Of a DNA stretch of 64,000 nucleotides, positions 3,076 to 63,672 are shown piece after piece. Position 1 is the first letter of the stretch. Each line of letters begins with the position of its first letter. The DNA lies in contig CM022679.1 in NCBI GenBank assembly GCA_012295275.1, positions 14,632,001 through 14,696,000 on the forward strand, in the 5' to 3' direction. Origin of the DNA: Chrysomallon squamiferum. Taxonomy: Eukaryota > Animalia > Mollusca. The notes under the pieces were generated by a model. That model did not search any database, had not been told where the DNA came from, and saw only the letters and a program-made list of their open reading frames with translations. Position numbers and translations under genes: made by a program.

Positions 3076-3113
<38 letters not shown>

Positions 3114-13231: not shown

Positions 13232-16200
13232 ATGGCAGCCTCCGAATCAAAACAAAACAGTTCAGTGGGTGTAAATACGCTCAGTTTGCAGGAAGAATTA
13301 GCTGCTAGCGATCGCAAACATGCAACCACACCAGCGGAAGATGAATGGCCCAAACCTGTTATTTCAGCTCCACAAGCAACAGTGTCACAGCTGCATACAC
13401 GCAATAATAAGAAAAAGGAGAGTAAGTACCTGACCTATAAAATAAATAATCTGCATGATAACCTAACTTTGAGCTACTTCATGTACTTGGTGATATTACT
13501 TTACTTCTTCCTCTTTTTATTTCATTGAAGTTTATGGCAAATTAATGTTTGATACATTAAAAATTAATATTTCAAAAGAAAATGAAAAACTAGAATCAAT
13601 GCATTTTATACAGTTATTTTATTATCAAATTTATAGAGTAACTTTAAAAAGTTGCTGTCAATGTCATTGTCAGTCGACTCATTGTCATTATCAATATCAC
13701 CTGTTGATGATAATGAGTTAAAAATAATATGAGTCACTATTCATTTGGTATATTGGTTAAATTTAACAGTGGCAGAAATAATACTAGATAATTTTTATAC
13801 ATTGACTGTTGACCAGGTGGAAAGTTTATACAGATATATCTGTCCTAGTTTAAAGTATAATAAAAGTATTGTATTTATAAAATATATTGCTTGTGGAAAA
13901 AATGTAAATGGGATTACAATGTTTAAAAAACAAAAACAAAAAAAATAAAAACTCCACTAAAAAACCAACATTTATTTCAGTCTAAAAAACAGAAACTACA
14001 TGATGCCTTATAAGATTATAATTCAGGTGTGTTAATAATTCAGTTTGGTATCTGTAGTGCACACTGACAATATTTTTAAATGATAACAATTAATATATTT
14101 TTAAAATAATAAATAGTGTTAGAGTTTTAAAACAAGACTCATTAATTTAACTAAAACCCATTGCTTAACTAATCAGGCAAGACAAACGACCAACATTAAA
14201 TAAATAGTTTCTTTTTCCAAATAAATAATTTGTATATTCACTTATTTTTATTATAAATAATAATAATATATATTACTTATTTGTTTTAAAATAATTGTTA
14301 ACACAACATATCCTGTTATATATATGTAGTTGTAAATACTACATTCTAACCAAAATGTTTTCTTTCGATGTACAAATTTATTATACATTTATTTTAAATA
14401 ATACAGCAATTTTTTGTTTTGTTTGTTGTTGTTTTTAATTAATAAATTAATTAATTAATCGTCATCATTATCATCATCATCATTATTTAATATATCTCAT
14501 TTCTTCTTGAATTTGAAATAGTAATATTACTCTTTTCCCTTTTCTGAAATCCTGGATTGCCTGTGATCACATTTTACATGACCACTGTTTGTATCATGTG
14601 ATAAATATTGATTTTCTGTAGAAAAAATCTGCTTGGTTTATCCAGAGTTTAACTCACTATAATTCATGCCTGTAGAAATAAAGAGATATATTTAGATATT
14701 CTAGTTTTAAAACAGTTGAGATAGGTTTAGATATTTTGTTTCCAGAGCAATAAATATTTTGCTTATGGCATTTTGATAATAAAGATATTTTGAGAATATA
14801 TATTTTGAAATTTATAATGTCCTATAACAAGAAGTAATTGGCAAAAAAACCCATGTTAAAGCCTTAAAGTAGCTAATCTTATTTGCTAAACATGGAATAT
14901 GGATGGATATATTCTGATTAGTGTGTTATGATGATATATAATATATTTAGACATCAGGATTACCTACAGCTTATTTTTGTAAATTATTCATATCAGTAAT
15001 ATTATTAAGATTCAGTTGTATTTAACTTAGCCATTTTCTGTGATAACATTTCACAGAAACAATAATGTTGTTCCAAAAATACAGTGTGTGTTATGTATAT
15101 ATCTGTCTTTCTTTCTATCCACACACAGACACATACATTTATATCAGTAAAAATAAATAAAACTATCAAAAATACTGCAGTCCTTGTCATCCTAAAACAA
15201 TCATGTGTCATTTAATATGCAGAAATTTCCATTAATATATATATGAATATGGACATTAGACCCAATATTAAAATTAATATGCAAAAAAAACCTCTCTTAT
15301 TTTTGTAAATATTATTATTTTTTTGTGTGTGTGTGTTCATGTAAAATACTTCAATTTATGACTCAGCACTATTTTAAGATATCTTTGAAGATACCACTCT
15401 TTGAAAGAATCAGTTTTTCATTTATTTAAGGAACATTAAAATGTTTAGAAAAGAACTTCATTGTGGGCAGTAATTGACATTTAGCCCCATATAATAACTT
15501 GGCCCATAGACTTGCAGTATTAAAATATGTATTATTTAACACACAAAAGCTGCCATTTTGTTATTTGTTTATTTAATTTTTTATTTTTTGTCCACATAAT
15601 ATTAAATTTACTGTACATTAAAATGAATCAGCAGTATTTTAAGAAAACTGCATTAAAGACATCAGAATTTGTTTTATTCAAAGAGTGTGAAATCCCAGAA
15701 GGCTGTTTAATAAGGGATCAATAGGTCTGCATTAAAAGAATGTTGGCAGCCAGTGGCAGGCAGCAGCATAGAGTACCACATTAACATAATAGCATCACTA
15801 TGCTTTATGGCTTGTCTCCAGCTAATCAATAATCTTTCCGGAATTTTCCTGCATTGAACAACATTGGATAATATCTTCATTCATCTGGAATTTCTGTTGT
15901 TTAGCTGAAAAAAGTCTCTGTTCTATGTTTAAAAGAAAAAAAAACCCACATTTTTCCTTCAGCTCTATTCTCTGTAGATAAATAATGTAGACTTCTGCTC
16001 TACCTGGCAGACAGCACATTTAGTACTCTTCACGTCTGCTGCCAAATAGTAGCAGACTTGATCTTTTTTTATTTTTTTTATTTCTGCGCTAAATCACTAT
16101 GGAGGAAGAATGGTAAACAAGTGTTGGTGCCATTTTTGATTTTTGCATTCTACTGAAGGCCATGGCTGAGGAAACAATATATTTGTGTAATTTTCGTGTT

Positions 16201-16640
16201 TCTGTTGATGGGGACTGGCTGTGTCTGCGTGAACTTAGAGATGTTCAGCTAGAACGCAATGAGGATGAGATGATCACATCTATTGATGATGGTATGTTTT
16301 GTGTTGGGTCATGGTGACACTCATTAATATGTAATCTGTGCAACTGTCTGCTATCTATTCATGTATTTTTTTGTGTATATTTACTTCTCTTTTATTTTCT
16401 GCTTTCAATATGAATATTCCTTCATTGTCAAGTATAAGATCTATGTTTTAAATTTAATTCCTGAATAAATTAGATGCAGCAGATGAAATTTTAGAAATAC
16501 TAACAACAATGGTTATGTCACTTAGTTTATAAGCAGTATAACTATTATGCTGTGTGAATTCTGACCTTTAATTATTGCAGATATAAATTAGTAGGTTTAC
16601 TTATATGTTTAGGCTCATGCTATACTTTGTTTTCCCTTGT

Positions 16641-16673
<33 letters not shown>

Positions 16674-17614
16674 TCTTTACACCCTGCTGGATTCTTATTT
16701 AGTCTGTCTGTCTTTCTGCATGAATGTCTGCCTGCCATAATAATAATTTGACATTTTGTGTTTTGTATAATACAGAACCAGGTGTTTTAGCAATAGTTAT
16801 AATATATGTCCCTTGGCACTGACAATTCTTTTCATAATAATAATTGTATTATTTCACCTGATTGAATGTTCCAGCAGTCAGTCAGTCAGTCTGTCTTTCT
16901 GCCCATCTGTTTTACCTGACAGCTTTTAACAATAAGAAGTAAAGGTCAAACGTTTCTCTATAAATAATGATATCATTTGTTATTAAGTGCAATGATGATC
17001 AGAATTTTCAGTTTAAAAGTATAAATTTATTTCTAAGGAGTGAAATAAATTAGTATTTGTATCAGGTAGATAGATATCTATATTTAGTATACTTGGAGAA
17101 TTATAAGGTAGTAACAGTTAAACAAAATACACAATGTTTGTACATGTGTGGGTGTGTGAGTGAGAGAGAGAGAGAGAGAAAGAGAAATAAAAATAAAATT
17201 TTCCAAAAGACTGCTGGTCTTGTTTCACATCCATTTCATTTTTATTTTTTTATTTTTTCTATTTATCTCAGGCCCTGGGCATATTTATTATCCTATGTTT
17301 TTCTAATGTTTTTTGCACAGTTTATTATTAAAATTTTTCTTTAATAATTATTTTAATGTGCCTAGCATTGTACATGTTATATGTGTACATTGTAAATGAT
17401 ATTATGACTATTACCTATGACTGCCTTTGCTTAAGCTATGAGTCACTTCATGGATAAATACTTCAGTGATTCATTTTCTTAAATCCATATTATTGTTTAT
17501 AGAGCCTGGGAAAATAACCTGCTTGATCTGTTTTTAGATTCTGTTTTGTTAATGATGTAAACATACATACATACATACATAATCTGCACATTCACTCATA
17601 CATGTATACAAAGT

Positions 17615-17648
<34 letters not shown>

Positions 17649-18313
17649 GCATGAACACTCATATACACTAACAAATTTCCATGCTTCGGTTATACACTGA
17701 ACATAAATATACAACAGAAGACAAATTCATTAGACTTCTAATATAATAAATATGCCAACATTAAATAAATATTCTTAGTTTCCACATCCTGGTTGCATTT
17801 TCATTTAGTTAAAAACCCACACTACTTGGTATACGTTATTTTAAATAACACTCCATACCCCAGTATTTCTATATCATGTGGTTTGAACTCTGTTGTAGAT
17901 GGTGCAAACTGATTTCTTTGATCTGTTAAAGAGTAAGTTAGCCATGTGTGTGTATTTTGAAGATTTTAAGTAGATAGAGGTAGGAAAACCAGAAGTGGCC
18001 ACCTGCTGATAAGTCCTGATTGGCAGTAAAAACTGCTTACCAGATTTCTTTTTAGTCCAGAGAGAGATGCTTCATATCTTCATCTTTTAAACAGGAAGGT
18101 GGTTATTTATGATAGCCTCAAATACAAGGTTATCTGGAAAAAAAGATATGTTCAGTTTTTATATCCTTATATAATAAATGTTGTAATGTAATAATACTAT
18201 ATGTCATTTTTATTTTTAATGTAATAAAAATAAGAAGAAGAAGAAGAAGAAGAAAAAAAAAAAGAAAAAGAATAAGAATAAGAATAAGAATAAGAATAAT
18301 GATAATGATAATG

Positions 18314-18352
<39 letters not shown>

Positions 18353-19789
18353 CCTCAAAACTAGATATGATAATCATTACCACAGCAGATTAATATGATT
18401 TCTAATACTGGATAGCCATTATTATAATAAACATATTAATTTTTGCAGTATATTACAAAATATTTTGGTTCCTCAGTCCCTCACTTTCTCTCTATCTCTA
18501 TTTCTCTTCTCTTCCCTCCTTTCTCTTTCCATCTGCCCTTTTCCTGTCTCAGTCTCCCTTTTTCCTCTCTCTCCTTTTCCCTCTCTTTTCACTCTTTCTA
18601 TCTTTCTCTCTCTGTCTCTCTTCTTTAATTTTGTTGACCAAACCAAATTTTATTTATTGCAATAATGTAAAATGTTAAAATATTTCAAAGTGTTTGAATC
18701 TTTTACTGTATTTTGAATACCTTAATTTAATCATATTAATAATTTCATTTGATGGTTTCTGTTAGAAAAACAGAGCTTTGCAGTTTGCTGGTTACAACAC
18801 TGGTGTGATGCATGGCAGATTACAAGATCAAAACTCCTCAGTGTTCATCTTTACCATTTTTGATTCCAAAAATTAACAAAATAATATTTTTTATTTAAAT
18901 ATTCTATTTTTCTTACATTTTCATAGTCAGTATCTCTACGGATATATTATTATTATCTGGTGAATATTTAAATAAATATTTCTACTAATATTATTGTTAT
19001 TATCTATAGAATATTCATATAAATATTTCTGTTCATATTATTATTGATGTTTTCTGAATATTTAAATAAATATTTCTACTAATATTATTGTTATTTTCTA
19101 TAGAATATTTATATAAATATTTCTGTTCATATTATTACTGATCTTTTCTGAATATTTCTATCTTATACTAAGTTTTTACTCATTATTTTCCAGGACAAGA
19201 TCCAAAAATAATAGAGAGGGCGAATCTTCTGAACGTAGCTAAGCTGATTATTAAAGAACTGATAGACTCATCGCTGGCACACGGCCGCATGCTTGATGAT
19301 GACCACGTCCCACTACAACAGTTTTTTGTCGTTCTGGAACACATCCTTCGACACGGATTGCGACGTGAGATTTATTTAAATTATACATATCTTAATTTTT
19401 CGTTATTTCCACGTTTTAACAATGTATATTGTAGTAGTTTAACATATTCAAGAATAAATTTCTCTCTTTTTTTTCATTTCTTTAAAAAACGAACGTCAGT
19501 GGGTTTATCATCTTTGATTCCTAATTTATTGAAGAAAAACAAATGGTTCAGAAAAGATTTAACAGAACTACCTTTTACAATAAAAAAAAAAATCAAATAT
19601 ATTTAATAATAAAAACTAAAGTATTTCTTTTGTTAAATTTAAAAATGAAAATTATGATACATCACATTCCAATTAAAAGTGCTGTTTTTTTTTCTTTTTC
19701 TTTTTTTTTAAATTTTATTTAGTATACATACATTAATATTTTCTTTTGGATTTTCTTCTTTTTTTAAAATTTAGAGATCTACACACATT

Positions 19790-19832
<43 letters not shown>

Positions 19833-22470
19833 TAAATGTCAATTAAGAGTACAATAAATACCAATTTACATACTTCACATAATTTAAATTCCTCTGCATA
19901 TTAAATATATTTAACAAATATTCAGCATTTCAACATAGATTTACTTCAGCAAATTTTTAAATAATGATCCCTATTTATTTACTACTGTATCCAACACCAT
20001 TTTAGTACAAGTTTCGTGATTTGCTTGTCAAAATAATTATTGATCTCAGTCTTCTTATAAAATATTTCTTTAGCTACAGCTTTATTGAAGTAGAGTTTTT
20101 GAACACACTTTTGAGTGAAAAATGTTTTGTTGACAGCTAAAAAGGGACTGCTGCGAGACAGAAGAGAATTCTGGGTTGTGTTGGAAAACATTGAAAAGTT
20201 TGCACCAGAAGCTGCTGAAATAACCACCAGCGTCAGAGATATGCCACATGTGAAGTATGTTTGATAATAACAATAATAATAACAATAATAATAATAATAA
20301 CTGTAGTAGTAGTAGTAATAGTAGTAGATTTATTAGTAGTTACAGTAGTAGGATAGTACTAGTAGTAAATAGTAGTAGTAATAAAAAAAAAAAAAAGTAG
20401 TAGTAGTAATAATAATAATAATAATAGTAATAGTAGTGGTATTAGTAGTAGTAGTAGTAGTAGTAGAAATTGTAGTATTATTGTAATAATAGTGGTAGCT
20501 GTAGCAGTAGTAATAGTAACTATAATATTAATATTAATAGCATCAGAAGTAGTAGTAATAATAATAATATTAATAGCAGCTGGAGTAATAGAAGTTATAG
20601 CAATAGTAATAATAGTAGTAGTAGTTGTGATGGTTGTTGTAGTCGTAGGTTTAGGCCTATAGATCTTACCTGTTTTTACACCATGAAAAAATAATAATGA
20701 TCTGTTTTCTTTTAGTCATTAATGAAATGTTAATTTTTTATTTCATTTTTAATTTATCATTGCCCAGTTTATATTCAACATTTTTTTTTTTTTTTTTTTT
20801 TTTTTTCAAATTGTTTGAATTTTCTGTTTTCCTGATTTCAAACTATACCAACCAAATGTCACATGATCAATAAGCAAAGGGAGAAGTCTGATACTAACTA
20901 CAAGTTATGTAGCACAGAACCATTTAACTGTAAAAATGTACTTACTAAGCATACACATGAGTCATTCATTTCTGTGATATAAAATGAGGAATATTTGTTA
21001 TGTGCAGTGAATGTAACAAATTCTGAGTAACAGTTAATCTTTAGCATAACAGGCAAAATTAAAAATACTTAACTGGCTGAAACCATTAAGTTGCATTTTA
21101 TTTATTTATACAATATGCAGTTTAAAAATATAATAACAACAACAACAATAATAATAGAAGTAAATTGAATATGCAGATTTTAATAGCTGATAATTTGTTT
21201 ATACAATATGCTGTTTTGTATTTATTAAAAAGAAAACTGTTAATATATCTTCTTTTTTTAATTAAATAGTTATTTAAGTATGCATATGTTATTTGTTCAG
21301 TTTTTTATTTTATTTACTGTTTTAAGTGTGTTTATGCATTTTTTTTATTATTTTATATTTTTTTTAACACTTTTTATTCATCAGTTATTTTGGACATTGT
21401 TAAATTAATAAAACAAACAAAAACAATGGATATTTTATTAAAAATAAATTCATAAAAACAGTAACAATTTTTTTATTGTTATTCATTTAAACAAATACCG
21501 TTTAGAACACATCCCCAAGAAATTAAAAAAAAAAAAAAAAACGACGAAAAACAACAACTTAATTTTACAATTAATTATGTGTTTTAAATTGAAAGTAAAT
21601 TAGACTGGGAGACAAGTCTATGTTTAAAGATAAGACTTGGTCTGATGACCTTTGTGTGTAATTGGTGAAAGGAAGTGTTACAGACAGACTGCTTTGTTGA
21701 GGTGACAAACACAGAATCACTCAGTGGCAGATGTTTTTTGAAGTTCACATCTTTATCAGTTTTTTATCTTTTATTTGTTCTTTTTTTTTTTTTTATTCCT
21801 TTGTTTTTGGGAAGGGCCTGTGGTTTGCATCTACATCTGGTTATTTCGTATAGTATTTTAATTTTAATTTTTTATTACTTATTTTACATCACCATCATTT
21901 ATTTATTTTTATTTTTATTTTTGAATAAAAATCAGAAAATTAAAGTGGAAAATTGATTTCTAATTTTAAAACAATATATTAAACATCTGGGATGGTGGGG
22001 TTTTTTGGGGGGTTTTTGTTGGTTTTTTAACAGAGTTATAATGAATTTAGGTAAATGGCTTACATAAAAATTAATGGGTTCCAATTTTTGGCATGTCTAA
22101 ATAATGTGTATGTTTGTGTGTGTTGGTTATTTTGTATATGTCAGTGTGTTTATGTGTAAAGAGGCCTGTATGTGTATTATAATTATAATACAGAATATAT
22201 CAAACCATTAGTGTGTTTTGTCTTTATGAAATATACATTTACGCTAATGCATCCCACTCTTTTTAATAATTCTGATTTAATTTTAACAGCTATTTTATAT
22301 TAATTTAAATAAAAGATTAGCACTGTTTATTGTTCATTTATTTCAGAACTGCTTTAGGCAGGGCACGAGCCTGGATCCGGCTAGCTCTCATGCAAAAAAC
22401 CCTCGCAGATTACTTCAAACTGCTCATAGAGAAAAAAGATGATCTGCTCAGGTACAGTTATTTATATTTA

Positions 22471-22519
<49 letters not shown>

Positions 22520-25500
22520 TATCATCATTTTTTTTGTTATTCTCATTATTGTCATTTTACTTATTCTCATTATCATTATTATTATTATTATTTTTTATTT
22601 ATTTATTATTATTTTATTATTATTGTTATTATTAAAATTTATATTTTTAGTTGGGTAGTTTGTATTGAGTTCAGACAGTCTGTTGATGAATATTTTCTAT
22701 CAGATGATGTAAAATGTCCTGTACTTAATAGTTAAATATATATATTAACTATTATAGCAGTATCCTTAAAGGCACATTTAGTCCTTTCTGCATCTCACTT
22801 GTTTTAATAGTCAGTGTTTTTTATTTATAAATTCATTTCACCTTGAAAGTTGTAAGTTATAGGCACTCAACTAATAATATCTAAATGTTTTATTGATAAC
22901 AACCTATATTCAAATGGTTGTCTAGTTATAGTAGTGAAATACAGTGATTAAAAACAGCAAATTATCAGTGTTGAAAATATAAATATATTTCTATTCATTG
23001 AATTAAAAAATAATGTTTTAACTTTTTAAATGATATATATAACACATTTTTTCTCATTTTTATTTTATATTTTTGCAATAATATCTCATCGCATCTGTAT
23101 TGAAAGAATATACTTCACTTATCCAATTCAAAACAATTTTTAACCATTATAAATGATGAACATCCCAACTTTTTAAAAATTATTTTTTATTTTTACAGTA
23201 ATATCAAGTTAGATACATAATTAAAATGTGTTATTATTTTTTATTTATTATGAATTATAGACACTCAGTTTAGTCTGTGTATGATCAAGTTCTTATACAA
23301 GTTTATTTTTAAATATTTTAAACAATAAATTCAACAACCTTTAAAACTCTATTTTTTGCAATAAGATCAGGTCAGATTTGTAATTAAAATTTTTCATCTC
23401 ATCAAATCCATAGCTTTGTTTTAACATTTTAAATGATAAACGTAACAATATTTTAATTATTTTTATTTTATTTATTCATATATTAATATTTTTTTAGATA
23501 CTGTGGGCATAATTTATCCTCTGTGTGTCCAAGTATTTTTACAAGTATGAAATACTGGTGTATCTAAAAACTGAGTTTATTTTACAGTGAGTTTTATGAA
23601 CCTGGTGCGTTTCTGATCGAAGATGAGGGAATCGTCATTGCAGGCTTGCTTGTTGGTCTCAACGTCATTGACTGCAACTTCTGCATCAAGGGAGAAGACT
23701 TAGACCAGCCTGTAGGTATCCAACATAATAAGGAAACAAAATTAATTTTATAACTAGAATTTCAACATACTAAGAAATAACACAGCTCTTTGTTTATGTA
23801 TGTATGTATTACAGTTTATAACAAAAGTAAAATAATTTAATTCAATAGAGTAGTCATTCTTAATAGTTTTGAAAATAAAAATAGAAAATCTTAAATTCTT
23901 ATTCTTAAAAGCTTGAACATTCTTTTTATTATTTGGGTAATGTTAAATACTGAAAGAATTAAGATAAAGTGTTTTTATTTTCAGATGGGAGTTATAGATT
24001 TTAGTTTGTACCTGAAAGGTTCTTACGTAGGAGGTACTGATGAACAGGATAGGTAATATATATTAAAAATATTTAGTTTTTACCAATGAGAGCAATGGAT
24101 GACAGTTATTACATGAATTCTGTTATATTTATTGTTATTTTAAAATTAAATCATTACCCATAAAAAGCATCATGCATAGTGAATTTTTTTTAATAACCTT
24201 AAATTTAATTTAGATTTTAATTCAGCTATGTTTATTTATTTATTTATTTATTATTATTTTATTTTTATTTTTTTAATTATTCATTTTATATATTAATATA
24301 TTTTTATTTTATTTATTATTATTATTTCTTTACTTTTTTTTTTTTTTTTTTAAATTTTTTTTTTATTCTTTTGTTTTAATTATTAGTTTTATATATTTAT
24401 ACATTTTTATTTTTTTATCATTATTATTTTTTAACTTTTCTGTTATTTTAAAAAAATGTAAATATTTTATTTTATTTTTATTTCTTATTATTTTTTTATT
24501 TACTTATTTATTTATTTTATATAAAAAAAATTCTAGGCAGGAGTTTGTTTTCTCCTTGGTAAAATGATGTGTTCTGATTTGTTTGTATGTGTAATGTACC
24601 ATAAATTACCTTTTATAATAATTTTACCATTCAGCCCAGAGGGTCAGTCAAAAATGGCCACAATTCTAGATCAGAAGAATTACCTTGAAGAGCTGAACAG
24701 ACATCTGAAGTAAGAAAACAGATAAATTTAAAAATATATTTTAGTGAAAGAAATATTTTATTTTTAGTATCTATTTATTTAATATTATTAAATTATTCTA
24801 ATTTTTATTATTATTATTGTTATTACTATTATTATTATTATTACAAATTATTTGAAAAATAAGAGCTAGTTTGAAGTTTCAAATTTAATGGATTAGAGAT
24901 AAGTATAAAATGTTGAAAGGTATAATTATCACTGAAAATGTGATTTCACAGAAATGAACAAGAAAGATAACCATGGAGTACTTTGTATGTACTTCATGTT
25001 AAATCTGTTAAGTATTGTCTTCTCTCTATCACCAGTACAAAAGATAAAATAAACAGGAATCATTTCTATATTGTATTTTATTATTAAATGTTATTACTAC
25101 CTTCATTTCACAGTGCCACAGTGACCAATCTGCAACAGAAAATGGAACATCTTCAGACAACTAATGCTTTAATGAAGGAAGACCTGGCAATAGCGAAAAA
25201 CACCATTTTTATGCTCCAGGACGAAAATGCAGCTCTGAGAAATGAGAGAGACGATATCACAAAAGACCACACAAAACAGTTAGAGGTAGACTGTCAGAGA
25301 TATTTCACATTTTAATTAATAAAAATTTATTACTACACAAAACACTCAGAGATAGATTGTCAATGGAATATCATATTTAATTAATAAAATTATATTACTA
25401 CAGAAAATAGTTAGAGGTAGACTGTCAGAGATATTTCACATTTTAATTAATAAAACTATATTACTATACAAAACAGTCAGAGATAGATTGTCAGTGCACT

Positions 25501-28500
25501 GTTACATTTTAATTAATAAAACTATATTACTATACAAAACAGTCAGAGATAGATTGTTAATGGCATATTACATTTAATTAATAAAATTATATTACTACAT
25601 AAAACAGAGGTAGATTGTCAGTGGAGTATCACATTTTAATTAATAGAATCTCAATGCCATAAAAAACATTAGGGATAAATAGGTATTATTATATCCTATA
25701 TTTCTATTAATCACAAGAAAGCATTACCAGTAGATATACTTTATTTCATTATCCACATTATTTATTATTTTGATATCCTAGATGAAATTGTAATAAAGAA
25801 ACACGCTTTACTTAGGTGACAAAACAAAGCCCAAACTCAAACTATGTATTCAGTATGCTGTTTTATTTCAGGCAGCAAAAGAGGACATTGATGCTGAAAG
25901 AGAAACTTACGAAACATCTAGAGCAGGACTGGACACAATGTATGCTGAAGCCAAAAAGAAACTTGATGAGGAAACACAACTAAGACTGGTCAGTAATTAA
26001 TCTTTATTGACTTATTAGTTACCTGACTGACCGACTGGTTATCTGATCAATGGTTAGTAATTCATTTTTATTGACTTACTGGTTATGTGAATGACTCACC
26101 TTATTAAATATTGCATATATGTGAGTTTTGGAGTATAATGATGAAATGAAAATATCTATCATTCCGATATTAGTAATAATGTAGCTTTTATATGCAGCCT
26201 GTAATAGACAGGTAAGCACATAACAATGTTGTTCATGGTTAGAACTGGAAATGGCCCTGTAATTATAGTAATGGGCTAGTCAATCAACACAGAAAATTAG
26301 GATAGTTAGTGATAATAAACTGGTTGTTTTATTTGTTTTTTTTTAAATTTATTAATGAAGTCATTTAGCTTGAATTTTCTACAGACTGTGTAAGAAGATC
26401 CATTATAACCAAAACAGATGAACTATTTTCCTGACTTAAATGATTGCAGAAATTAAAATAATGTTTCTTTTTTAATTAATTTATGATTGGTTGGAATTTT
26501 GTATAGTCAATGATATTTAACAAAAAAAAAAAATTTATTTATTTATTTATTTGTTTGTTTTTACATAAACTTTATTATTATTCTTCTTAACCAGCACATT
26601 TGTTTTTCATCTTTTTTAATTCAGGATGTGGAAAGAGAACTTGAGTTACAGATCGGCATGAAGACAGAGATGGAAGTTGCTCTGAGACTGCTGGAACGGG
26701 ATATTCATGAGAAGCAGGACAACATTGTGTCACTAAGGCAACAACTGGCTGAAATCAAGACAATTAACCAAGAGATGTATCATAAACTGCAGGTTTGTGT
26801 GAATCATCTGTAGATATCAGAAATGTAATATTATAGTTCAGTTTCTCTTTAACATTCCAGTAATAAAATATGCGTAGTCTCTGAATTAATACTCATGTAA
26901 TTAATAACTCAAAGACTGAGGTAAAATTGAGATTTAATGAAAAAAATTAAAACACACAAAAAATATAATTTAAAAATATTTCACCTTTTTTCCATTGTTA
27001 AGACAAGATCAGAAGACACTATATGTAATGATCAAAAATCATTCCAGTTGTTATGGTTATTCAGTGATATAGTCAAGCGAGTTATTTCTACCTATATAAA
27101 GTTATTCAAAACCATATCTGACATGAAGTCAGCAAGTTTCATAAACTGCAGAGGCATATTGTGGTGTTTTGTGTTTGTGTATGTTTGTGTCTCTGTGTGT
27201 TTCTGTATTTACTGTGTCATCATAGATGAGTATGTTTCATATTACAAGAAACACACATTCTTGTGTATCTTCTAAACTAAGAAAAAGACCCAACTCAAAA
27301 GTATTTATTGATAAATAAAACAACATATATGTACATACATTACTGAAAACATAAATTGAAACTCACAACTGGAGAATAATCAACACAATTACTAATAGCC
27401 CTAGATGTACAAAACAAATGTTTAAAATCACAGTAACAAGTGCAATATGATACTGTCAACTGTAAGCAAAAACAACCACCAATCAGTGAATTTTATCAGT
27501 TAATTACAAAAGTTCTCTGAAGTCTGTCTGCAATTATATAGACAAGCCCTACACTATGTACAGACAAAAATCACCAAGTGGGGTATTTTGTTGTACTTCA
27601 TCAATGACCCATTATAATGTGATAACCAAGGGAAATAATAGTGTATGTATTGCAGCACTTTGAGTTGTCATTCATAAATGTGTTTGAGTTTTTGAAAGGT
27701 CCTTATTGCCAGTTTATACAATAGCTTACTCAGGACCAGAGTTCTAGTTCAAAAGGTATGGGAGTATAGGAATAAATTGTATGAAATTTATAATCTATTT
27801 AAAACATAAAATGTGTTTTTCTTTTTTAAAAATGATAACTTAACATCAAGGCAAATAGCATGTAAATATAGGGTGCCAACATATATGAACCACAATATTT
27901 TCATATTATTTTAAATCCGAGACAAATTCACAGGTCCATAAACTGAAAAATAAACTGCAATATTACACCACTTTAATAAAACTTTAGTTCTTACAGGTAT
28001 GTCTCACATTTATAGATTATCTTTGTATGTCACATATTCTAGTACTAGTTCTAGCTACATTTTTTCTGAATCCTTCAATGAAGCAGAGTTGACTACTAGA
28101 TTACAATTTGTGTACCTATAGATCTTTTTACCTCTTCCACTCCATGCTTTTGTTTGTCAGAGATGTGTAAATTCTTGTTTGTGGATCAGTTCTTAAAAAG
28201 AACCCTTGCTCTTATTCAGTAATAAGAGAATTTCAGAAATGACTTTCTTGATAATGATCTAAATTTGTTTTTTGCCTGAAATTCTGTTATTCAGAATGTC
28301 CAGTCTACAGGTACATGACAAACATTTTAAGTAAAAGAAAACAAGAATATCAAAAAATTATAACAACACCAAAATTCAAGAATTTAAAAGTTTTATTTTG
28401 TTAAAAATTGTATGAGGTTTCATTCACAGCATTTGCATCTTTCAGTTTCATGAACAATATCTGGAATATGTTTAACAACTTATTTCTATTTTTTAAGTTT

Positions 28501-29927
28501 TTATTTTCCTTCTATTATTTATTTCAGTTTCTTTATTGGAATATACAGTGGCACATTTTGGTGTTTGAAAAAATAGTTTTAACAATTGTGTTTCAAATAT
28601 TGGTAACAAAGCATACAGAATTTTAACAAGTTTATTTCATTTTTTTTTTCCCTATTCGATGATTACTTCCATCGTTTGTCATCAAACTGGCCTTCAAATT
28701 TCTTCAAGTTTTCTTCTGTGTTCTGAAATGACAGTATAAAATAAAGTGTTAAAACAAGTGATTGCATGCTCTGTTAAACACTAGTCACATTTTTTTTTCT
28801 TAATTTTATTTTTTTAAAAAAAAAAAAAAAAGAAAAATAATGTTCATTAAATATTTTATTTTAAAAAATAAATAATAAATAAATAATTTTTTAAAGAAAA
28901 AAGGATACATTTTTGTATATTTTTTTATTTTCACATTTATGGTTTTGTATTTCAAAGTTATTTTTTCACATATAAAATGTTAATGAAACATTTTTACAAA
29001 CCTCTGAGGTGTGTGGTAGAAATACTTTCTTTCCACATGTAGAGGTCAGTTTTAGGATTTCTCTCTGAAAAAACAAAACTTCACATACAGATATCTACAT
29101 CAACAAATACTTCACAGATATCTAGACTGAAAAATATCTAACATTTTTGATGTTATTAAAATTTCATGATAATTACTAATGAAAATTTAGAGAGAGAGAG
29201 AATAAAAATATTTAAAGGACATCCTTTTTATTTTATGTTTTTCTTTTAATTTTTAAAGTACTTTTTAATGTAAATAAAAAAAAAATTAAATTCATTTAGT
29301 CTTCACACAAAACAATTTCTATGTTTTATATTAATTCACTCCAGTGTTTTATTTTATAAAGTCAAACTTTCCAACCCACCGATGCCCAGAAAAAAAAAAA
29401 TAATAATAAATGAATAATTTTAATGATACTTACAACAAGAACCCTGTTAATCGTGTTTACCAGTCCCTCCACGGCTGTTCCACACTCCTCCCTCACACGT
29501 CTGTCATCCACCAGATCGACATTTCGTTTACCTCCCGCATGCCACCAGTTGCTGTAGTGATACTGGGAGCTGCACTGAGGTACAGCCAACATGAGAGCAA
29601 CCAGCAGGAAGAACCAGTTTAGATAGTGTGGATGATGCCATTTTTACTGTGTCTGTTCTAGAAATAAAAATAAATAATATATATATATTTTTTTTTTTAT
29701 AACAGCTATAAATGTTTGATCCATTTGAAATAATTAGAAAACTTCCTTTTTATATAAATTTCTATTTATTATTATTTTTTAATTTATAATATTTTTTTTT
29801 TAGTATTACTGTTATTATTTTTTTATTATTAAGTTCCTTTTTTCTTTCTGTTTAAAAAAACAAATAAAGCCAGAATTATAAAAATAATAATTTCAGATCT
29901 GATTGTGAGTTTTCGAATCATTTAGAA

Positions 29928-29973
<46 letters not shown>

Positions 29974-32900
29974 TTATTTTTTTTTTTTTTTTTTTTTACA
30001 ATTTCATTGCAAAGATTCTTTTTGGACTGTTGATTACAATGTCATATTCACTACATCATATATCAGTGTCAGAAAGTAATAATATAAAAAGTATTCTTGT
30101 TATGAAAGTAATAAATAATAATGTACCCTTTTACCATGATTTGATATCTTGAGAAACTGTACAGCATATAAACCATGTACGTTTTCTCATCATTTTTATT
30201 TAAATTAATATGTTATATGTTTGTTATTAGCAATATAAGGAACATGTGACTATTTAGTTATAAATATTTTTTTTCTGTTTTCGCTATTTTTAAAATGTTT
30301 GTTTGATTGTTTTTTATTCATTAAATGACATATGTATACTTGTTTAAAACTGAAATCTTTTTCTTGAAGTTAAAAATACTATCTTTGAAATCTAAAATTT
30401 TTAACAATGCATATTAAAACTTCTTTAGTAGAACAAAGAAAACAATGAACCAGTATCTAAATCATTAGCAAGTTGATAATATGTTTACGTTTTTGTGAAA
30501 AAATTTACCTGGAAAACACCTTTAGATTTTATCTAAAAATATATTTTTTAACTTAGCTTTTTAAAAAAGGTAACCCAAAATAATTATGTAGAATTTCTTC
30601 TAAATCTTTATTTAATGGTTTTTTTTTTTTAAATTGGTCATGTTTAGATAACTAGTATATACATGGAATTTTTTTTATCCATCTTCCAAATACAGAAAAT
30701 TTATAATTTATATAAGTTCTAAACCAAACTCAAAAAACATAAAAAAAAAAAAAGTCTTATATAAAAACTGAAAAGAAAAAAAGAGAAAAATTTGGAAAAG
30801 ATATTTTTTAAAACAAATTGTAAAAATCAATTTTAATATAATTCATAAAAGAAAACTTTCAAAAACCTTGAAAAGTAATTAACAAAAAAAGAAAAAAAGA
30901 ATTAATGATTTATTGCCAGGCCAAAAAAACAAATTTAAAATTTTTAAAAAATTAGAAAAAACTGAAAACATTATTACTCACCAGTTTGTAGTGTCTGATG
31001 GATTCACTAAGGTTTCCAGTAAAAACAATGAACACTTTGCTGATCGGCTCCTCTTTTTATACAAAAATTTTATCCGTCTGCAAAAGTTTTATTTAATGAG
31101 AAAGAAAATTCAGGAAATTACAGTGTTTTCCACCCCAAAGCTATATTCCTTTCACCTGTAAATACATTATTTGGTGCTGTTTTGCATGCCAACTGTTCCT
31201 GGACAGACTCTGGGGGCTTCCAAAGATGGATGGCATTTGACAGATGACAAGATGGAGACAGGACTGTTAAGGGTTGGAGCTAGCACCAGGTTCAATGTAA
31301 TTACAGCACAGTCCATCCCCTGGCAGATAATCTGACAAGTGTTAATAAACAGGAAAAGCACGACAACGCACAGACAGTTATTTGCACCGTTTGCGTTCGT
31401 CTGTAAAACGTATGTGTGTAGGAGTTAATCTAGAAGATTCATTATTACTTCAAAAGAAAAAAAAAAAAAAAATATTATTTTAATTTAAATTTTTTATTTA
31501 ATTAATTTTTGTTTTTTCTTTTCACCCTTGTGCAGATATAATTAGTTTGAGTTACAAAAAAGAAAGGTTTGGATAATAGGTGATCAGATTGTTTGTGGAG
31601 TTTTAGTGTATTGTTTTTAGTTTTCATTTAATTTTCCCATTAGAAATTCCTCCTCCAAGTATACTTAAAATCAGAGTATTTTGTTTTTGTTACAAAAATA
31701 TGTCCATATTAATAATAGATAATTAATTGGTGGGCGAGTTTCTGTAAATTACATTTTTTTTTGTTTTTCATTGTAATTACTAGTTTTCCATTTTGAAATT
31801 TCTTCTAAAAATATTCTTTAAGTGGTTTTTATGTTTTATGTAATGCACTGGCTAATTCTGTAGACTTAATTTTTATTTATTTTTAATTTATTATTTGTTT
31901 TATTTTTTGCTCTCTCTGGTCCCTTCGAGCTGTCATCCATTTAATCCAATGCCCTTTTATCAAAGACTGTGGTAAATTCATTCCTGTCTAGAGGAAGGTA
32001 ACTTAAAATATTTCTTTCTGCTGATTGATAAAAGAATAGGTCACATGTGGCTGTAATGAATTTCTTCTTATCATGATATATAAAAAAAAATAATTTGAAC
32101 ACTTAAACATTATTTAATATAATGAATTTCTTCTTATCACGATATAAAAAAAAAATAATTTCAACACTTAATTATTACTAACATAATGAGTTTCTTTTGA
32201 TCCTAACATACCAAAGAAATAATTTCTACATTTATTTATTATTAATATTAAAATAATGTTTGTCTTTCAACATTTAGATGTGATTTGGCTGACAAGTTTT
32301 AGCTGTCTGTATTCAGAGTTCATTCTGTTGGTTTTTCCTTCACTTGTAACTTGATTCGCAGACCCACGTGTTTCATATCAAAACTCTTTACTCTAACACT
32401 TTAAACTTCATTCATTCAGGGTCTCAGGAGTTTTTAAGGTTATTTTAAAACCAGACACAAATTATTTCACTAAGCTTATATCAGTCTGTTTATTATTCAA
32501 CGTCCTTGGTTTAAAGCTCTAGGTTTAAACAAGTCATCGATTTCTTTAATTCCGTATTTTACAGTTGGTTGTTTTGAAAGATGCAGGTTGAGGTTGATGT
32601 AGTGATTGTAAGGTTGAGGAATTACAGTTTGAGGATGTTTAGTAGAGTTTTGAAAGTGAGAAATTTAGGTTGATGTTGGTAGTGTTTGGAATGTCAGAAA
32701 TTTTGGCTGAGGGTGGTAGTGTTTTGAAGGGATTAATATGAGAGAGGTTTGGAATTTCACTAATATCACTGTTGTTTTGAACATTTGGAGGCTGAGGATG
32801 TAATTAATGTTGGAAATGTTTGAAGACGATGTCAGAAGTGTTTGGAAGGGTTGAGTTAAGGATGACAATGGTTTATGGAAATGTTGAAATAGGGGATGTC

Positions 32901-35900
32901 TCTAGGGGATTATTTGTATTTGGAAGCATGGGTGCTGAGGATGTCAGTAGTGTTTGGAAAGTTTAGAGGTTCAAGATGTCAGTTTTTGGAAGTATGTAAA
33001 TTGAAAATGTCAACAGTTTGAAGGGTTGATTTTAATGATGTCAGTAGTATTTGGAAGAATTCAGCTTGAGGATAAGAAGGCAGTGGTGTTTGGGTATTAG
33101 AAGATGATGTTTGAGTTTAAGAGGGATGTTCAGTTGTTGTTTTGATTTAAATTAAGAGAAGAATTGTTTTTATGTATTTGTTACAGACAGGTTATGTTTA
33201 AATACTCAGACACAGACACAAAAACATACACTCACTCACATACACACTACATGTTCTTTAACTGTGTACTTTCTTTATGCATCTAGCAATAATAAAAGTG
33301 AAAAACTGCCCACTCATTGGCTTTATTGAAGTATCATACAGGATAACAGCTTTTGTTAAATTTTACAAAAGTCACTGTGTATATTTAAACTGAGTAAAAC
33401 ACAGAGTACTGAGAAACATTACAGTATCATTTTTTTTTCTTTCTAATGTAGTTATTTAAATACTGTAAAATAAATATAGTTATTTGAATGCAATACTGAA
33501 ACAGTTTTTGTAAATTCTGTATTATGTGCAAGAAGCTGCAGTGTGTAATTTTGTGTTACAGAGAAACAGAACTGTTTTATCTGTCTAGTTTTAATTAGGT
33601 TTAATTCTGTTACATTATGTGTTTGTTTCAGAGTTGTGAAGGTACAGTGAAGCACAAAACAGATATGGTTGGAAAGCTGGAAGAGAAGACAAACCAACTC
33701 GTTCACACACTGAAAGAAATGGAGAAGAGGTGAGTGCATTTTTAATCTTTACCGTTCAGCTGGCTAAGTGACTTGTTAAATGACAATGCAAATGTATACC
33801 AGCAAGAACATTCCCTTGGTGAGCAGTGCAGGGCATGGCTACAGTTGTTTCAAACTAATGTTCAGATTTTGTTTTTTCACCCAAGGCTAACAGATTCAGT
33901 TGTTAAAATGTCTGGGAAAAGCAAGCACCAAGTTTTATCCCATTAGTAGCTGCTTGTCTGTCAGAATTGTTGAGAAAGAATGATCATCTTGACAGCATCT
34001 TGTGTTAAAAAAACCTAAGAAGCAAGCAGTGCCATCCCTTCAGACGTCTGCCTTTCAAAATTGTTTAAGCAAAACATACAACAGAGAGAGTGTTCAAATA
34101 ATATGATTTTTGGTTAAAACAGTCAATAAGAATGAAGCACCAGGTTTCAAAACTGTCAAACCTTGAGTTTCTTGTGTAGCAAAATTATAATATGAAAGAT
34201 ATGAAAGAATGTTCAAGAAACAAAATATTTTGTTAAAAAATCTATAAGAAGCAAGCACCAGCTTTCGAATCTGTCATTCCTTCATTCACTCGCTTGCCAA
34301 AATAGCTTAAACCAAACCAAACAGTATCGTGAATCGACAGCATCTTATGTTAGAAAATAAGTCTAGTCACATAATGAGATTTTCTGTGAAAAATATCTGT
34401 ATGAAGCAGGCATCATGTTTCAAAATAGTCATCCCTTCAGTGGCTTGCCTGTCAAAGTTGTTTAATCAAAACAAGCATCGGAGATAAAGGTCAACTAATA
34501 AGCTTTTTTTTTTGTTAAAAAATGTCTATAAAAAGCAAGTATTGAGTTTCAGAACTGTTATCCCTTCAGTCACTTGCCTTTTGAAATTGTTTAATCAAAA
34601 CTAACAAGAGAGAATGGTCAGCTGAGAAACTGCGCAATCAGTCATTGTTGGTGGATGCTCTGGGCCTGTGACTGGGTATTCCATTATTACTGATGACGTA
34701 AGCGACACAAGAAAGACAAAAATTTCATCTTGCAGTCAAATAAATCTCTAAGCTGATGAAGTATTTTTCTCATTATCCATTACGGTTTTTGGTGTTGCTG
34801 AACTTCTTGCTAATGCTTTTCAAGCAGTGCAGTTTGTTGGTTTAATGATAATAATGAAATATTTTAGTTAAGGCTTTGTGGACATAAGGGCAGTTGTCAT
34901 ACAATTACATCTTTTATTTTTATGGTGTAAGTTCTCCTCATTCATCACCTAAACCTTTTCTTTCTTCCAGGGCACTGTGATAGTAATTTTCTTTAACTTT
35001 TATTTGTTATTTTTATAAATTTATTGCCTTTTTAATGAATAATAATAAGCATTAACAGAATAAAAATATTTAATAAATAGATGTCACCAAAATGAAAAAC
35101 ATTTTATACATTTAAGGAGATGGACATTTATGCTATTCCTTTTCATAACTTTTTTTTAATAAATGATAATTGTCATAAAGATGATAATTATTTAATTATA
35201 AAACTGAAAGATATATATAAAGTTTCAGTGATCAAATTCAATCAAATAAAATAGGTTACAAAATGCCATTGTTTTTACTGACATTATTAACCTGAAATGA
35301 ACTGACAGAAATTAAAAATAGGTTTATTTTTTCTGATTAAATTTAAATAAAGAGTCAGAAATAATTAATAAAAATTATAATAATAATCATTGTTTTATCA
35401 CACTGACATTATTAACTTGAAATCAACTGAGAGAAATTCAGAAGAACCTTTCTTAATGATTTAAATTTAATTTAGAGTCAGAAATAATTAATAAGAATTA
35501 CAATACTCAAATTATCATTTTATCTCATTAACATTATTATTAACTTGAAAAGAATTGATAGAAATTAGTAACAATTTGTTGTTGTTGTTTTTTTAAAATT
35601 AATTTTAATAATATATCACAAATAACTAATATGAATTACAGTATTTAAATATCATCATTATAATTTTATCATCACTAACATTAGATCATTTCACCTGTGT
35701 ACTGACATTTACCTGGTTTACCTGTACTTATTCGTTGTTGTGTTTACCTTGGTGTATTATGATTTGTTTTATTATTTAGTTTGCACTGGTTTGTTTGTAG
35801 CCGCGCAGTCCATTCATTTTTGTATCATTTTTCTTTTGCATGTTCTGTTCCACCCGCTCTTGGCCTCTTGTTGCTTGCTGGTGTAGATTAAAACAATGCG

Positions 35901-36242
35901 AGTCTGATAAACTAGCAGCTGAAGAAACAGCTCGAAAACTTGGCCAAATAATTGCAGAAAAAGATAACAAGCGGTAAGCGAAATTACTATTATTTTTCTT
36001 TTTTAAAGCATGAGTCAAAATTTGGTTAAGAAGTTTTTTTAGTTTTCTGGTAATAGGAATTTAAAAAAATGAAAAAAATAAAAGAATGAATGTAACTCAG
36101 AATTCACTTACCTGATATTTGGAGTTGATTTCTAACAGTTTGGATAAGCTTAAATATTTTCAGATTATTAAAAAAAATTTCAAAAATATAACTTACATTT
36201 AAATTTATAAGATTTCTAGTTTGCGTTTTGTGTCCCAGAATG

Positions 36243-36276
<34 letters not shown>

Positions 36277-39208
36277 AAAAGCAAAATTTATAAAATAAAT
36301 CAATCTTTCAAGATAAAAGATTAATTTATAAAATTTCTGAAAATAAAAATAGATTTGCAGTTCTAAATGCACTCCAAAATTCATTTGTTAATTTGTTTTT
36401 ATATTCAACTGACATTATTTTAAGTTTTTATTTAGTTATTTTTTATCTTGCAGTTATTTTAGTTTTTATTGTTCTGTGTTTCAAAATAGTCTTTATCATT
36501 TAACCATTGTCTATGCACATTTGTGATCATTATAATTAGTTTTTTTAATTTTTGCATTTTGGTTTTTCATATTTCATTAAACAGGTAAGCCAGAAATAAT
36601 AAACCACAATCAATAACATTTGTTAAATAAATAAATAAATAAATAAATAAAGCAGCAGAAATATATAGATTACATATTAAGAGATAATATTTATTTATAT
36701 ATTTCTCTATGCAAAAATATATATAAAACATAAGTTTGTAAGGGCCATTTGTTGCTGTCCCAGAGTGAACACAATAAATAAACTGTATTTAATGTACATA
36801 AAGAGCCATGTTGGAGACTGATCTGCAGATAGAAGCGAGAGTGGAGAACGACATTGCAGAAAGGTTTGGAAGAGGAGAAACTCAGGGGAAGTGAAATCCT
36901 TCTGGAGCTGCAGCAAGCTAAAGAACTTCAGAAGGTAAACCATTGTTTGTTTTAGTCAAGATTATTTCCAGTTTTTATAAAAATAATCTATCTTAGTGAG
37001 TGATGACAGCAGCCAAGTGTTGAGAGGACAAAGTCTGCAAGGCTTGAAGAGCTAACGATGTACTGTTTGTGTGAAAACACATACAATTATTTCTGTTAGT
37101 TGAAATAGAAGAACAGTAATCTGGGTCATTGGTTACAGAGATGGTTTGAGATTTAATAGATACAAGACACATGTTTTTTCTTTGATTAGTTCCTAGTCCA
37201 CTGACTGATTAATTAAAAGCTTGTAGTTTATTCTCTCCTGTCACTGGGAAGGTACATATTAAGGATGCATTGTTGCAAATCAGTATAAACAGCTCATACT
37301 GTGATGGCAGATGTTTCCTCTTAAAAAATTATTATTATTATTATTATTATTTTTATAAAGAAACAATGTGAAGGAATCATTTTCAAAAGCCTTTGGTAAT
37401 TTTGGAAATTATGTGGTTTTGTTAAATAGTTTATGATATTAACAAATTACATTGTTTGGTTAAATTAATGTTAGACAGTTATAAGATTCTGTAGTTTTGT
37501 TGTGTTTGTTTATGATAAATGATATGATTTTCTTTCAGAGTTATAATGAGTTAACCAGAAAACATGAAATGCTCAATCGTACTTGTGAGGAACAAGAGCA
37601 GGCATTAGCAGAAATAGGCTCACACCTCAGCGAGTGAGTATTTTTCATTGTCAGTAAGTTCACACCTTACTATTTTTCATTGTCAGTTATTTCTCACCTT
37701 CATATTTTTCATTGCCAGTAAATTCACACAGTATTTGTCATTGTCCACAAGTTCTCACCTTCATATTTTTCATTGTCAGTAAGTTCATACTTTTGCAGTT
37801 TTCATTGTCAGTATGTTCACATATTATTTTTCATTGTCAGTATGTTCACATATTATTTTTCATTGTCAGCAAGTCCCATCTTCATATTTTTTATTGTCAG
37901 TAAGTTCATACACTACTTTTCGTTGTCAGTAAGTTCACACAGTATTTTTCATTGTCAGTAAGTTCACTGTCACTAAGTTCACACCTTATATTTCATTTTA
38001 ATGGATATTTTTTTTTGTCAGCAAAACACTACAATGCTTACAGTTTAATGAGTATTTTCAGTAACAAATACAAATTTATAATTGCCATATAAAAGTACAT
38101 GTTGGTAATTATAAAAGTGTTGGTTGGTAATTGCTATAAAAGTACTTGCTGGTGATTGTCATAATAGTAGACGTTGATTACAATAAATGTGTATATTGGT
38201 AACTGTCTGAAAAGCACAGGTTGGTAATTATCATAAAAAGTCCAACTCAATACAATAATGTTTTTCTTTTCAAATTGATTAGCACTTCTGTTTTTTGGAA
38301 TGTTTTTTTTTTTTTTACTATTTACATCATCATACTTAATGAGGGAGTATATAGAATCTGGATTGTTTGGTTCACATCATGTACAGATTTTTCATTATTA
38401 TTTGAAAGGTTTTTATTTTTTATTTTTTTTTTTTTTTTATTATTAACTAGCCCTGAATTAAAAATGACAGGGATTTATAGCATAGTCTTACAGATGTTGT
38501 TATTTTTCTCTTCAGCTCCAAGTTGAAAGTTGAAGACATGAGGGAAGCGACTATGCAGTTGAAAGAGGCCCAGTGGGAGAGTGACGAGGCAATAAAACAA
38601 TGTAAACAGTGCAATAAAGATTTCTCTATTGCAAGGAGAAAGGTAATCTTGTCAGTGTTCATGTATCTGCCACTCAGTCAGTGACTTTAATTCAGTTTTC
38701 AAAGTTTGTGTTATGTGGTTTCTAAGGGTAGATCCATTTAACTGTTCATTTGCTGCTAAGAAAAAAATTAACATGTAACTGCACAGGAGGTTTTCTAATT
38801 CCTTATTTGTTTGTGATGTGATGCCATTTAATAAAATTACATTCATTTTATGATTAATTTCATTAACATTTCAGATTTCTATCAAAAAAAAAAATATATA
38901 TAATAATAATAATAATAATAAATAATAATAATAATAATAAAATAAAATAATAAAATAATAAAATTAAAATTGAATAATAATTAATAATAATAATAATAAT
39001 TAATTAAGAGATTATAAACATAAATAAATAAAAAACCCAATTAAATAATTAGAATTTTATTTTATTTCAGCATCACTGTAGGTTCTGTGGAGGTATTTTC
39101 TGCAATGAATGCTCTGACAACAAAATGCCTCTGCCGTCTTCATCTAAGCCTGAACGGGTCTGTGATAACTGTCATACACTTTTACTAAACAGATACTCTG
39201 CCACGTAA
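13232..39208 (+). CDS. RUFY2: RUN and FYVE domain-containing protein (RUFY1/2/3 family), 16 coding exons, ~660 aa after correcting one apparent +1 indel
   Basis: Exons: 13232-13421, 19194-19364 ([28 protein letters not shown]), 20137-20254, 22347-22451 ([14 protein letters not shown]), 23588-23711 ([12 protein letters not shown]), 23985-24052, 24635-24709 ([15 protein letters not shown]), 25114-25285, 25872-25988, 26625-26792, 33632-33729, 35887-35973, 36804-36934 (one extra base near 36833-36835), 37539-37633, 38516-38642, 39071-39208. FYVE motif RRKHHCRFCG..C..C..RVCDNC spans the last two exons. GT-AG and phases are consistent except for the exon-13 indel. Confidence 0.93.
16162..16291 (+). 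CDS. RUFY2: Alternative first coding exon (1b) of the RUFY gene, RUFY3-like N-terminus
   Basis: gccATGG start; [43 protein letters not shown] then G|gtatgt. It ends in phase 1 like exon 1a, so it splices in frame to exon 2 (19194). The motif matches the recalled vertebrate RUFY3 N-terminal ETIYLC.FRVS.DGEWLCLREL. Confidence 0.85.
18232..18352. repeat. Compound (AAG)n/(AAGAAT)n/(GATAAT)n/(AAT)n simple repeat
   Basis: Directly visible. Confidence 0.9.
18961..19158. repeat. ~94-bp tandem duplication just upstream of RUFY exon 2
   Basis: TGAATATTTAAATAAATATTTCTACTAATATTATTGTT.. at 18961 and again at ~19055, with few mismatches. Confidence 0.85.
20266..20645. repeat. Degenerate (AAT)n/(AGT)n trinucleotide tract
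   Basis: Directly visible, begins just after RUFY exon 3. Confidence 0.85.
25271..25646 (+). repeat. ~65-bp tandem repeat (~6 copies) overlapping the RUFY exon 8 donor
   Basis: Unit ACAAAACAGTTAGAGGTAGACTGTCAGAGATATTTCACATTTTAATTAATAAAA..TATTACTA repeated with variants. Confidence 0.85.
28663..29641 (-). CDS. GnRH/corazonin-family neuropeptide precursor (~109 aa), nested antisense in RUFY intron 10; apparent +1 indel in the signal peptide
   Basis: Coding exons: 29434-29641 (exon starts at acceptor 29657; aaaaATGG), 29002-29064 and 28663-28722. Corrected translation: MASSTLSK(L)[16 protein letters not shown]|[84 protein letters not shown]. The layout (signal peptide, Gln-initiated peptide, Gly-Lys-Arg, two-Cys associated peptide with I.R.L..EI....TC) is typical of molluscan GnRH/CRZ precursors. 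Both introns GT-AG, phase 0. Confidence 0.85.
30982..31029 (-). other. Probable non-coding first exon of the GnRH/CRZ-like gene
   Basis: Strong donor CTG|GTGAGT at 30982/30981. The exon begins at the Inr-like TCATTG (~31029). The next minus-strand acceptor used is tttctag at 29658. Confidence 0.6.
31026..31061 (-). promoter_or_regulatory. TATA box plus initiator of the nested neuropeptide gene
   Basis: Minus-strand TATAAAAAG at 31061-31053 and Inr-like TCATTG with +1 at ~31029, i.e. canonical ~-32 spacing. Confidence 0.6.
32570..33120. repeat. Degenerate G/T-skewed minisatellite (~30-35 bp unit)
   Basis: Recurring GTTTGGAAG..GTTGAGGATGTCAGTAGT-like units with strong strand skew. Confidence 0.6.
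33900..34625. repeat. Degenerate ~100-130-bp tandem repeat in RUFY intron 11
   Basis: Recurring AAGAAGCAAGCACCAG..TGTCATCCCTTCAG..GCCT..CAAAATTGTTTAA.CAAAAC blocks, about 5-6 copies. Confidence 0.6.
35270..35650. repeat. Degenerate ~125-bp tandem repeat (~3 copies)
   Basis: Recurring CTGACATTATTAAC.TGAAAT.AACTGA.AGAAATT and AGAGTCAGAAATAATTAATA blocks. Confidence 0.6.
37190..37321 (-). mobile_element. Degraded interspersed (SINE-like) repeat, inverted copy
   Basis: Reverse complement reads AGAGGAAACATCTGCCATC...TTTGCAACAATGCATCCTT...ACCTTCCCAG, similar to 46629-46697. Confidence 0.4.
37638..37995 (+). repeat. ~29-31-bp minisatellite (~12 copies) directly after the RUFY exon 14 donor
   Basis: Unit TATTTTTCATTGTCAGTAAGTTCACACCT and variants. 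Confidence 0.9.
38085..38242 (+). repeat. ~25-bp minisatellite, copy block 1
   Basis: ATAAAAGTACA.GTTGGTAATTG units; same family as 39790-40210. Confidence 0.7.
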
Positions 39209-45475: not shown

Positions 45476-45516
45476 GCTCAGTCATAGAGAAGTCAGGCCT
45501 GTTTGTCTAGAGAAAA

Positions 45517-52640: not shown

Positions 52641-63672
<11,032 letters not shown>

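Follow-up and report, generated by a model that had tools for sequence, protein, structure and literature searches.

Peptides long called "GnRH" in molluscs are now regarded as corazonin-type (10.1101/2020.03.01.971697; PMC8557429), and the corazonin-type family was present in every mollusc class among the rows of the PMC8557429 supplement that were compared here. An N-terminal Gln and a C-terminal Gly followed by a dibasic site are listed as hallmarks of the superfamily (PMC3969558). The limpet gnrh-like gene consists of four exons, the second of which carries the signal, the peptide, and the beginning of the associated peptide (PMC3969558), and the coding sequence of Platynereis crz1 likewise begins in exon 2 (PMC6969523). 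The ly-GnRH/CRZ peptide of Lymnaea slowed locomotion and sped up egg laying (PMC8113230); in Platynereis, CRZ1 is an activator of the corazonin receptor and sets the timing of growth and maturation (PMC6969523). Only in deuterostomes can the paralogues of the superfamily be told apart by intron counts, and PMC10321317 and PMC4923880 assign them oppositely.

We analyzed a stretch of 64,000 nucleotides (the window) from the genome of Chrysomallon squamiferum. A four-exon minus-strand gene was found inside intron 10 of a RUFY2-like gene. We regard it as probable that this is a working corazonin-type precursor gene, the frame break in its first coding exon being an assembly error.

Host gene and anatomy of the nested gene

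The following features were located in the window.

16162..39208, plus strand: RUFY2-like host gene with 16 exons, RUN and FYVE domains (Pfam; Gigantopelta alignment)
26793..33631, plus strand: phase-0 RUFY intron 10 of 6839 nt, which houses the nested gene (16-exon RUFY model)
31054..31061, minus strand: TATA box-like motif TATAAAAA, starting at 31061 (sequence; putative function)
30982..31029, minus strand: exon 1, 48 nt, non-coding, without ATG, donor GTGAGT (sequence; presumed start site)
29434..29657, minus strand: exon 2, which contains the ATG (29641), the predicted signal-peptide region, the peptide and its GKR, and the opening segment of the associated peptide including the first Cys; phase-0 donor (sequence and ESM matches)
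29607..29638, minus strand: interval holding a one-base frame break (deletion of any single base restores a 25-residue hydrophobic leader)
29524..29565, minus strand: predicted mature 11-mer, amide-donor Gly, and KR cleavage site (sequence; processing predicted by the family rules, PMC3969558)
29002..29064, minus strand: exon 3 of 21 codons, bearing the associated peptide's second Cys (sequence; acceptor rank 1 of 300)
28663..28722, minus strand: coding part of exon 4, C-terminus DDKRWK followed by TAA (sequence)
to about 28397, minus strand: 3' UTR of the nested gene (poly(A) hexamers)

The RUFY model, with AG/GT at all splice sites, aligned without gaps to Gigantopelta isoform X1 with 594 of 640 residues identical (93%), an X standing at its break. 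For exon 10, the best of 87 matches was with Gigantopelta aegis (95%), followed by Haliotis (88–89%), as would fit a gastropod akin to Gigantopelta. Intron 10 was the longest RUFY intron. The Gigantopelta protein runs on without interruption from exon 10 to exon 11, which flank this intron, and therefore the nesting is real; the position of the gene, described in an earlier note as antisense in the longest RUFY intron (26793–33631), was confirmed by the 16-exon model and this alignment.

Reading of the sequence placed the exons of the nested gene at the same coordinates as before, and the splice sites, the TATA- and Inr-like motifs, the peptide, the two Cys residues, and the DDKRWK end were all as the earlier note had described them. 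The A of the Inr-like TCATTG lies at 31029, 32 nt downstream of the start of the TATA-like motif at 31061. All three introns were of the GT–AG type, and both coding introns were in phase 0. Splice sites were scored with matrices from RUFY's own 15 introns, the minus strand of intron 10 serving as background: the donors took ranks 2 (exon 1), 6, and 13 among 321 GT sites, and the acceptors took ranks 1, 8, and 21 among 300 AG sites. The G+C content of exon 2 was 50% versus 16–21% in the introns of the nested gene, and the four GC-richest 100-nt windows of intron 10 all fell within exon 2. Tandem repeats of intron 10 lay outside the nested exons, and no Rfam matches were obtained in this intron. 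Past the stop codon, five AATAAA/ATTAAA hexamers were present on the minus strand between 28636 and 28397.

The GnRH/CRZ-type motif with terminal GKR occurred a single time in the six frames of the window, with no second motif of this type, and in none of 100 local shuffles; as the pattern was written with the peptide already known, this is a rough control.

Two further elements were observed on the minus strand of intron 10. A GC-rich block (31118–31370, 44–51% G+C in an intron of 27%) lies just upstream of the TATA motif and is a possible regulatory region of the nested gene. The best-scoring donor-like site was found at 29532 within the GKR codons; it is probably due to chance, and its use would delete the cleavage site of the peptide.

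The neighbors of RUFY, identified with Pfam, were an MTHFD2-like gene, a single-exon Cys-loop channel, and GFPT, with the gene order MTHFD2-like, RUFY, GFPT across 5466–63591. The channel is a 385-codon open reading frame at 44324–45481 (minus strand), a subunit of a Cys-loop ligand-gated ion channel with Pfam ligand-binding and membrane domains. In GFPT, one late SIS-domain exon is present in two tandem versions (56046–56228 and 55276–55449, minus strand) with 61% protein identity, which are candidates for mutually exclusive splicing. RUFY exon 4, together with its downstream intron, has an isolated second copy at 2887–3118 (plus strand), beyond the MTHFD2-like gene and 19 kb upstream of the real exon, with 84% DNA identity over 247 nt and 96% protein identity to Gigantopelta residues 143–170. 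The human MTHFD2, RUFY, and GFPT paralogues presumably also lie near one another in pairs; if so, the order MTHFD2–RUFY–GFPT would represent an old bilaterian neighborhood.

Frame break and repaired precursor

In the assembled sequence, the ATG at 29641 does not share the frame of the peptide; it opens 37 residues followed by a stop, and no secretable precursor is encoded. An alternative in-frame start was rejected because exon 1 has no ATG and the next ATG in frame with the peptide, at 29592, leaves just 9 residues ahead of it. Deletion of one base within 29638–29607 gives a precursor of 109 residues, in which the 25-residue leader precedes the 11-mer and GKR; the remaining 70 residues form the tail, and the two Cys lie at positions 53 and 79. 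As judged from hydropathy only, the repaired leader has a hydrophobic core (11-residue mean of 3.2–3.4). The 109-residue precursor of the earlier note was thus obtained in the repaired frame but not in the assembled one; its remark that the gene is frameshifted held, the residue count given there being that of the repaired protein.

We consider an assembly error several times more probable than a true lesion. RUFY exon 13 also contains one extra base, at 36832–36835 (plus strand), where GAAG stands in place of the single Glu codon expected; the match to Gigantopelta is complete (100%) as far as 36834 and continues, in the next frame, at 97% from 36836 onward. This extra base, one per 1924 coding bases of RUFY and about 7 kb from the break of the nested gene, is likely an assembly error and may have arisen where the two variants of a synonymous site were both entered into the assembly. 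Because RUFY carries a similar extra base, an assembly error in the nested gene is likelier than a pseudogene. Single-base assembly errors around the locus are present but not frequent, since no frame break was found in the 385-codon channel open reading frame, nor by eye in 14 exon stretches of MTHFD2 and GFPT.

A genuine extra base is unlikely; it would make the locus a corazonin-type pseudogene or null allele of recent origin, in which the first ATG opens a meaningless peptide of 37 residues, and would leave the animal without this hormone or dependent on a second copy elsewhere. The assembled frame reads in this way; however, past the break no other lesion was detected: the three coding exons contain no stop, and the six splice sites, the GKR cleavage signal, and both Cys residues are all kept. 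The comparable extra base in the conserved host 7 kb away also speaks against a lesion. Nor is the loss of residue 2 from the peptide peculiar to this locus, for it is shared with a neomeniomorph transcript among the published rows.

The read check covered exon 2 with short flanks (29420–29665) in four of the 11 runs listed. In DNA run X1, a single 114-nt contig covered 29623–29665 without differences from the window and ended at 29623, that is, inside the break interval 29607–29638. This end is a weak hint of a variant at the next base, as contigs also end for other reasons. RNA runs X6 and X8 and run X4 gave no contig on 29420–29665. The blank over the rest of this region, with the peptide and most of the break interval, weighs neither for nor against. 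The two RNA runs contained less than one tenth of the sampled words of 26500–34000, which is not evidence of expression.

For a working corazonin-type gene with an assembly error, the following course can be proposed, its processing steps following family rules. Transcription would start from the gene's own separate TATA promoter, independently of RUFY, and the putative 25-residue signal peptide would direct the 109-residue precursor into secretion. Cleavage at KR, donation of the amide by Gly, and cyclization of Gln would yield a pyroglutamate 11-mer amide, while the associated peptide would carry one disulfide. Released from neurons, the 11-mer would act on a corazonin-type GPCR and, by analogy with Lymnaea and Platynereis, may modulate locomotion, the heart, metabolism, and reproduction.

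Family assignment and the predicted peptide

In the ESM Atlas, exon 2 retrieved GnRH clusters first (15 of 30 hits, 0.93, 177–181 of 256 features), next came an arthropod cluster without a name, then AKH at 0.91 and corazonin at 0.90. Corazonin and GnRH/AKH are not split by this ranking, and a value of 0.9 is also reached by 4–10% of shuffled proteins. With the GnRH and AKH families left out, the search gave an unnamed arthropod cluster (0.92) and nothing molluscan. The similarity search with the precursor that the earlier note had proposed returned no relative: phmmer gave no match at E ≤ 0.001 among 1.84 billion sequences, the word search of proteins of 38–123 aa, a range shorter than some precursors, gave no candidate, none of 44 candidates aligned with the exon 2 and exon 3 pieces at E ≤ 10, and Pfam had no GnRH, AKH, or corazonin match for the product. 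These blank results reflect low sensitivity rather than novelty because published molluscan precursors were likewise missed. Sub-threshold Pfam matches to YncO and PhoLip_ATPase_N were rejected, as was the outcome of a metagenome scan. Of its 265 stretches, three passed, and their context marks each as a chance match in GC-rich DNA, two of them lying after a stop.

We compared the precursor with molluscan ones (PMC8557429 supplement, part 224) by eye. Exon 2 encodes an N-terminal Gln and a C-terminal Gly with a dibasic site, and, in the repaired frame, the order of predicted signal, peptide, and G-basic site is that of the published molluscan "GnRH" precursors. The earlier assignment to the GnRH/corazonin superfamily is supported by the ESM features, by this match, and by a four-exon plan like that of the limpet. 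Judging from the sequence, the nested gene is likely the corazonin-type gene long called molluscan "GnRH". Its four-exon plan and phase-0 intron match the limpet gnrh-like gene (PMC3969558); the four-exon plan is common to human GNRH1 and therefore does not by itself separate the paralogues. A Pinctada gene model loses similarity about where the first coding intron of the nested gene sits (PMC8557429 supplement), which suggests that the intron position may be shared.

Relative to the Lottia gigantea precursor (FC805607), the peptide encoded here is without residue 2, carries Tyr and Trp in place of Phe and Gly, respectively, and terminates in HAG. Cys 53 and Cys 79 are, as counted by eye, 25 apart versus 24 in Lottia, Aplysia, and Charonia. 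A Trp-basic C-terminal tail is found in gastropod precursors, DRKWKK in Lottia and DKRWK here. Location inside RUFY is not reported for the Lottia gene in the consulted parts of PMC3969558 and of the PMC8557429 supplement. The GGKR site leaving a C-terminal Gly-amide and the His after the last Trp are shared with oct-GnRH/CRZ of Octopus vulgaris (pQNYHFSNGWHPG-amide; PMC5592718), which is a 12-mer and not an 11-mer as predicted here; the cephalopod precursor is also shorter and without the Trp-basic tail. The Tyr-Ser core HYSN is common to Charonia tritonis GnRH variants A/B and Mizuhopecten py-GnRH, both of which, unlike the peptide here, keep residue 2 and the Gly before Trp; by eye, the region of the exon 2/3 junction is similar to the stretch that precedes the second Cys in Charonia. 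Platynereis CRZ1/GnRHL1 and Lymnaea ly-GnRH/CRZ belong to the same family and are expressed and active (PMC6969523, PMC8113230); the presumed function of the predicted peptide is modeled on theirs.

Six of the seven positions of the corazonin core (aromatic-His-aromatic-Ser-Asn-Gly-Trp) fit the predicted peptide, the Gly being replaced by Trp. Gly precedes Trp in 16 of 16 molluscan rows compared (PMC8557429 supplement), and the string "SNWW" did not occur in a 3.9-million-character supplement file of that paper. Absence of residue 2 was recorded in one of the same 16 rows, that of the neomeniomorph. The peptide motif, in five spellings, was not found in the literature searched. The Trp-for-Gly change could mean relaxed selection, and the loss of residue 2 moves the peptide into the AKH register.

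We consider it unlikely that the gene is an AKH/GnRH-type paralogue, or a corazonin gene with its peptide shifted to AKH-receptor selectivity. Four of the six hallmarks of a "true AKH" (PMC5024129) are present, namely Gln 1, aromatic 2 (Tyr), YS at 4–5, and Trp 8; but a length of 8–10 (here 11) and a W-, WG-, or WGX-amide end (here WHAG) are not. The slightly higher ESM placement of the GnRH and AKH clusters over corazonin and the two-Cys tail, also present in AKH precursors (PMC5024129), agree with an AKH assignment, yet the YH-aromatic-SN core, the Cys spacing, and the Trp-basic tail resemble the molluscan corazonin-type rows. Crassostrea gigas AKH, which shares the four hallmarks and the two-Cys tail, is a 10-mer with a WGX-amide end and one coding intron (PMC5024129), in contrast to the 11-mer, WHAG, and two coding introns here, the latter as in the limpet gnrh-like gene (PMC3969558).

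It is very improbable that the unit is no gene and that its motifs came together by chance in AT-rich intron DNA. In favor of this reading, no significant alignment match was found in any library searched, the frame needs repair, and the exons were picked by eye; against it, the motif was absent from all shuffles, the top-ranking splice sites join in frame, the GC peak falls on exon 2, the ESM family call is independent, and the peptide, Cys pair, and tail match in order across three exons.

Significance of the position within RUFY

The kind of gene is already well known, and the nested gene is a divergent member of its family; a conserved nesting would be the one mildly new idea. We lean slightly toward the view that the corazonin gene has lain antisense in RUFY intron 10 since the mollusc–annelid ancestor, that is, for more than 500 million years. 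RUFY nesting of a corazonin/GnRH gene was not found in the literature searched, a set that took in few subscription papers and not the limpet and annelid neuropeptide surveys among them. RUFY terms were absent from the searched supplement of one synteny paper, and no neuropeptide accessions were found near the RUFY RefSeq accessions (10 proteins) in the papers and supplements searched. Nothing found here points to a functional link of RUFY with the peptide, and co-location alone implies none.

A call of "loss of corazonin" from the present assembly would be unsafe, since probable single-base errors hit both the nested gene and its host. As a natural variant, the predicted peptide departs from a residue that is constant in the molluscan rows compared, and it may serve as a probe of corazonin versus AKH receptor selectivity. 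Short peptides and overlapping exon plans still keep the naming of GnRH, AKH, and corazonin genes confused in molluscs and annelids. If the nesting is ancient, it would provide a positional orthology test splitting corazonin-type from AKH/GnRH-type genes in Spiralia, and would find divergent unannotated copies such as the present one, the peptide of which has drifted into the AKH register. A fixed address in RUFY intron 10 would then be an independent orthology marker for any assembled spiralian genome.
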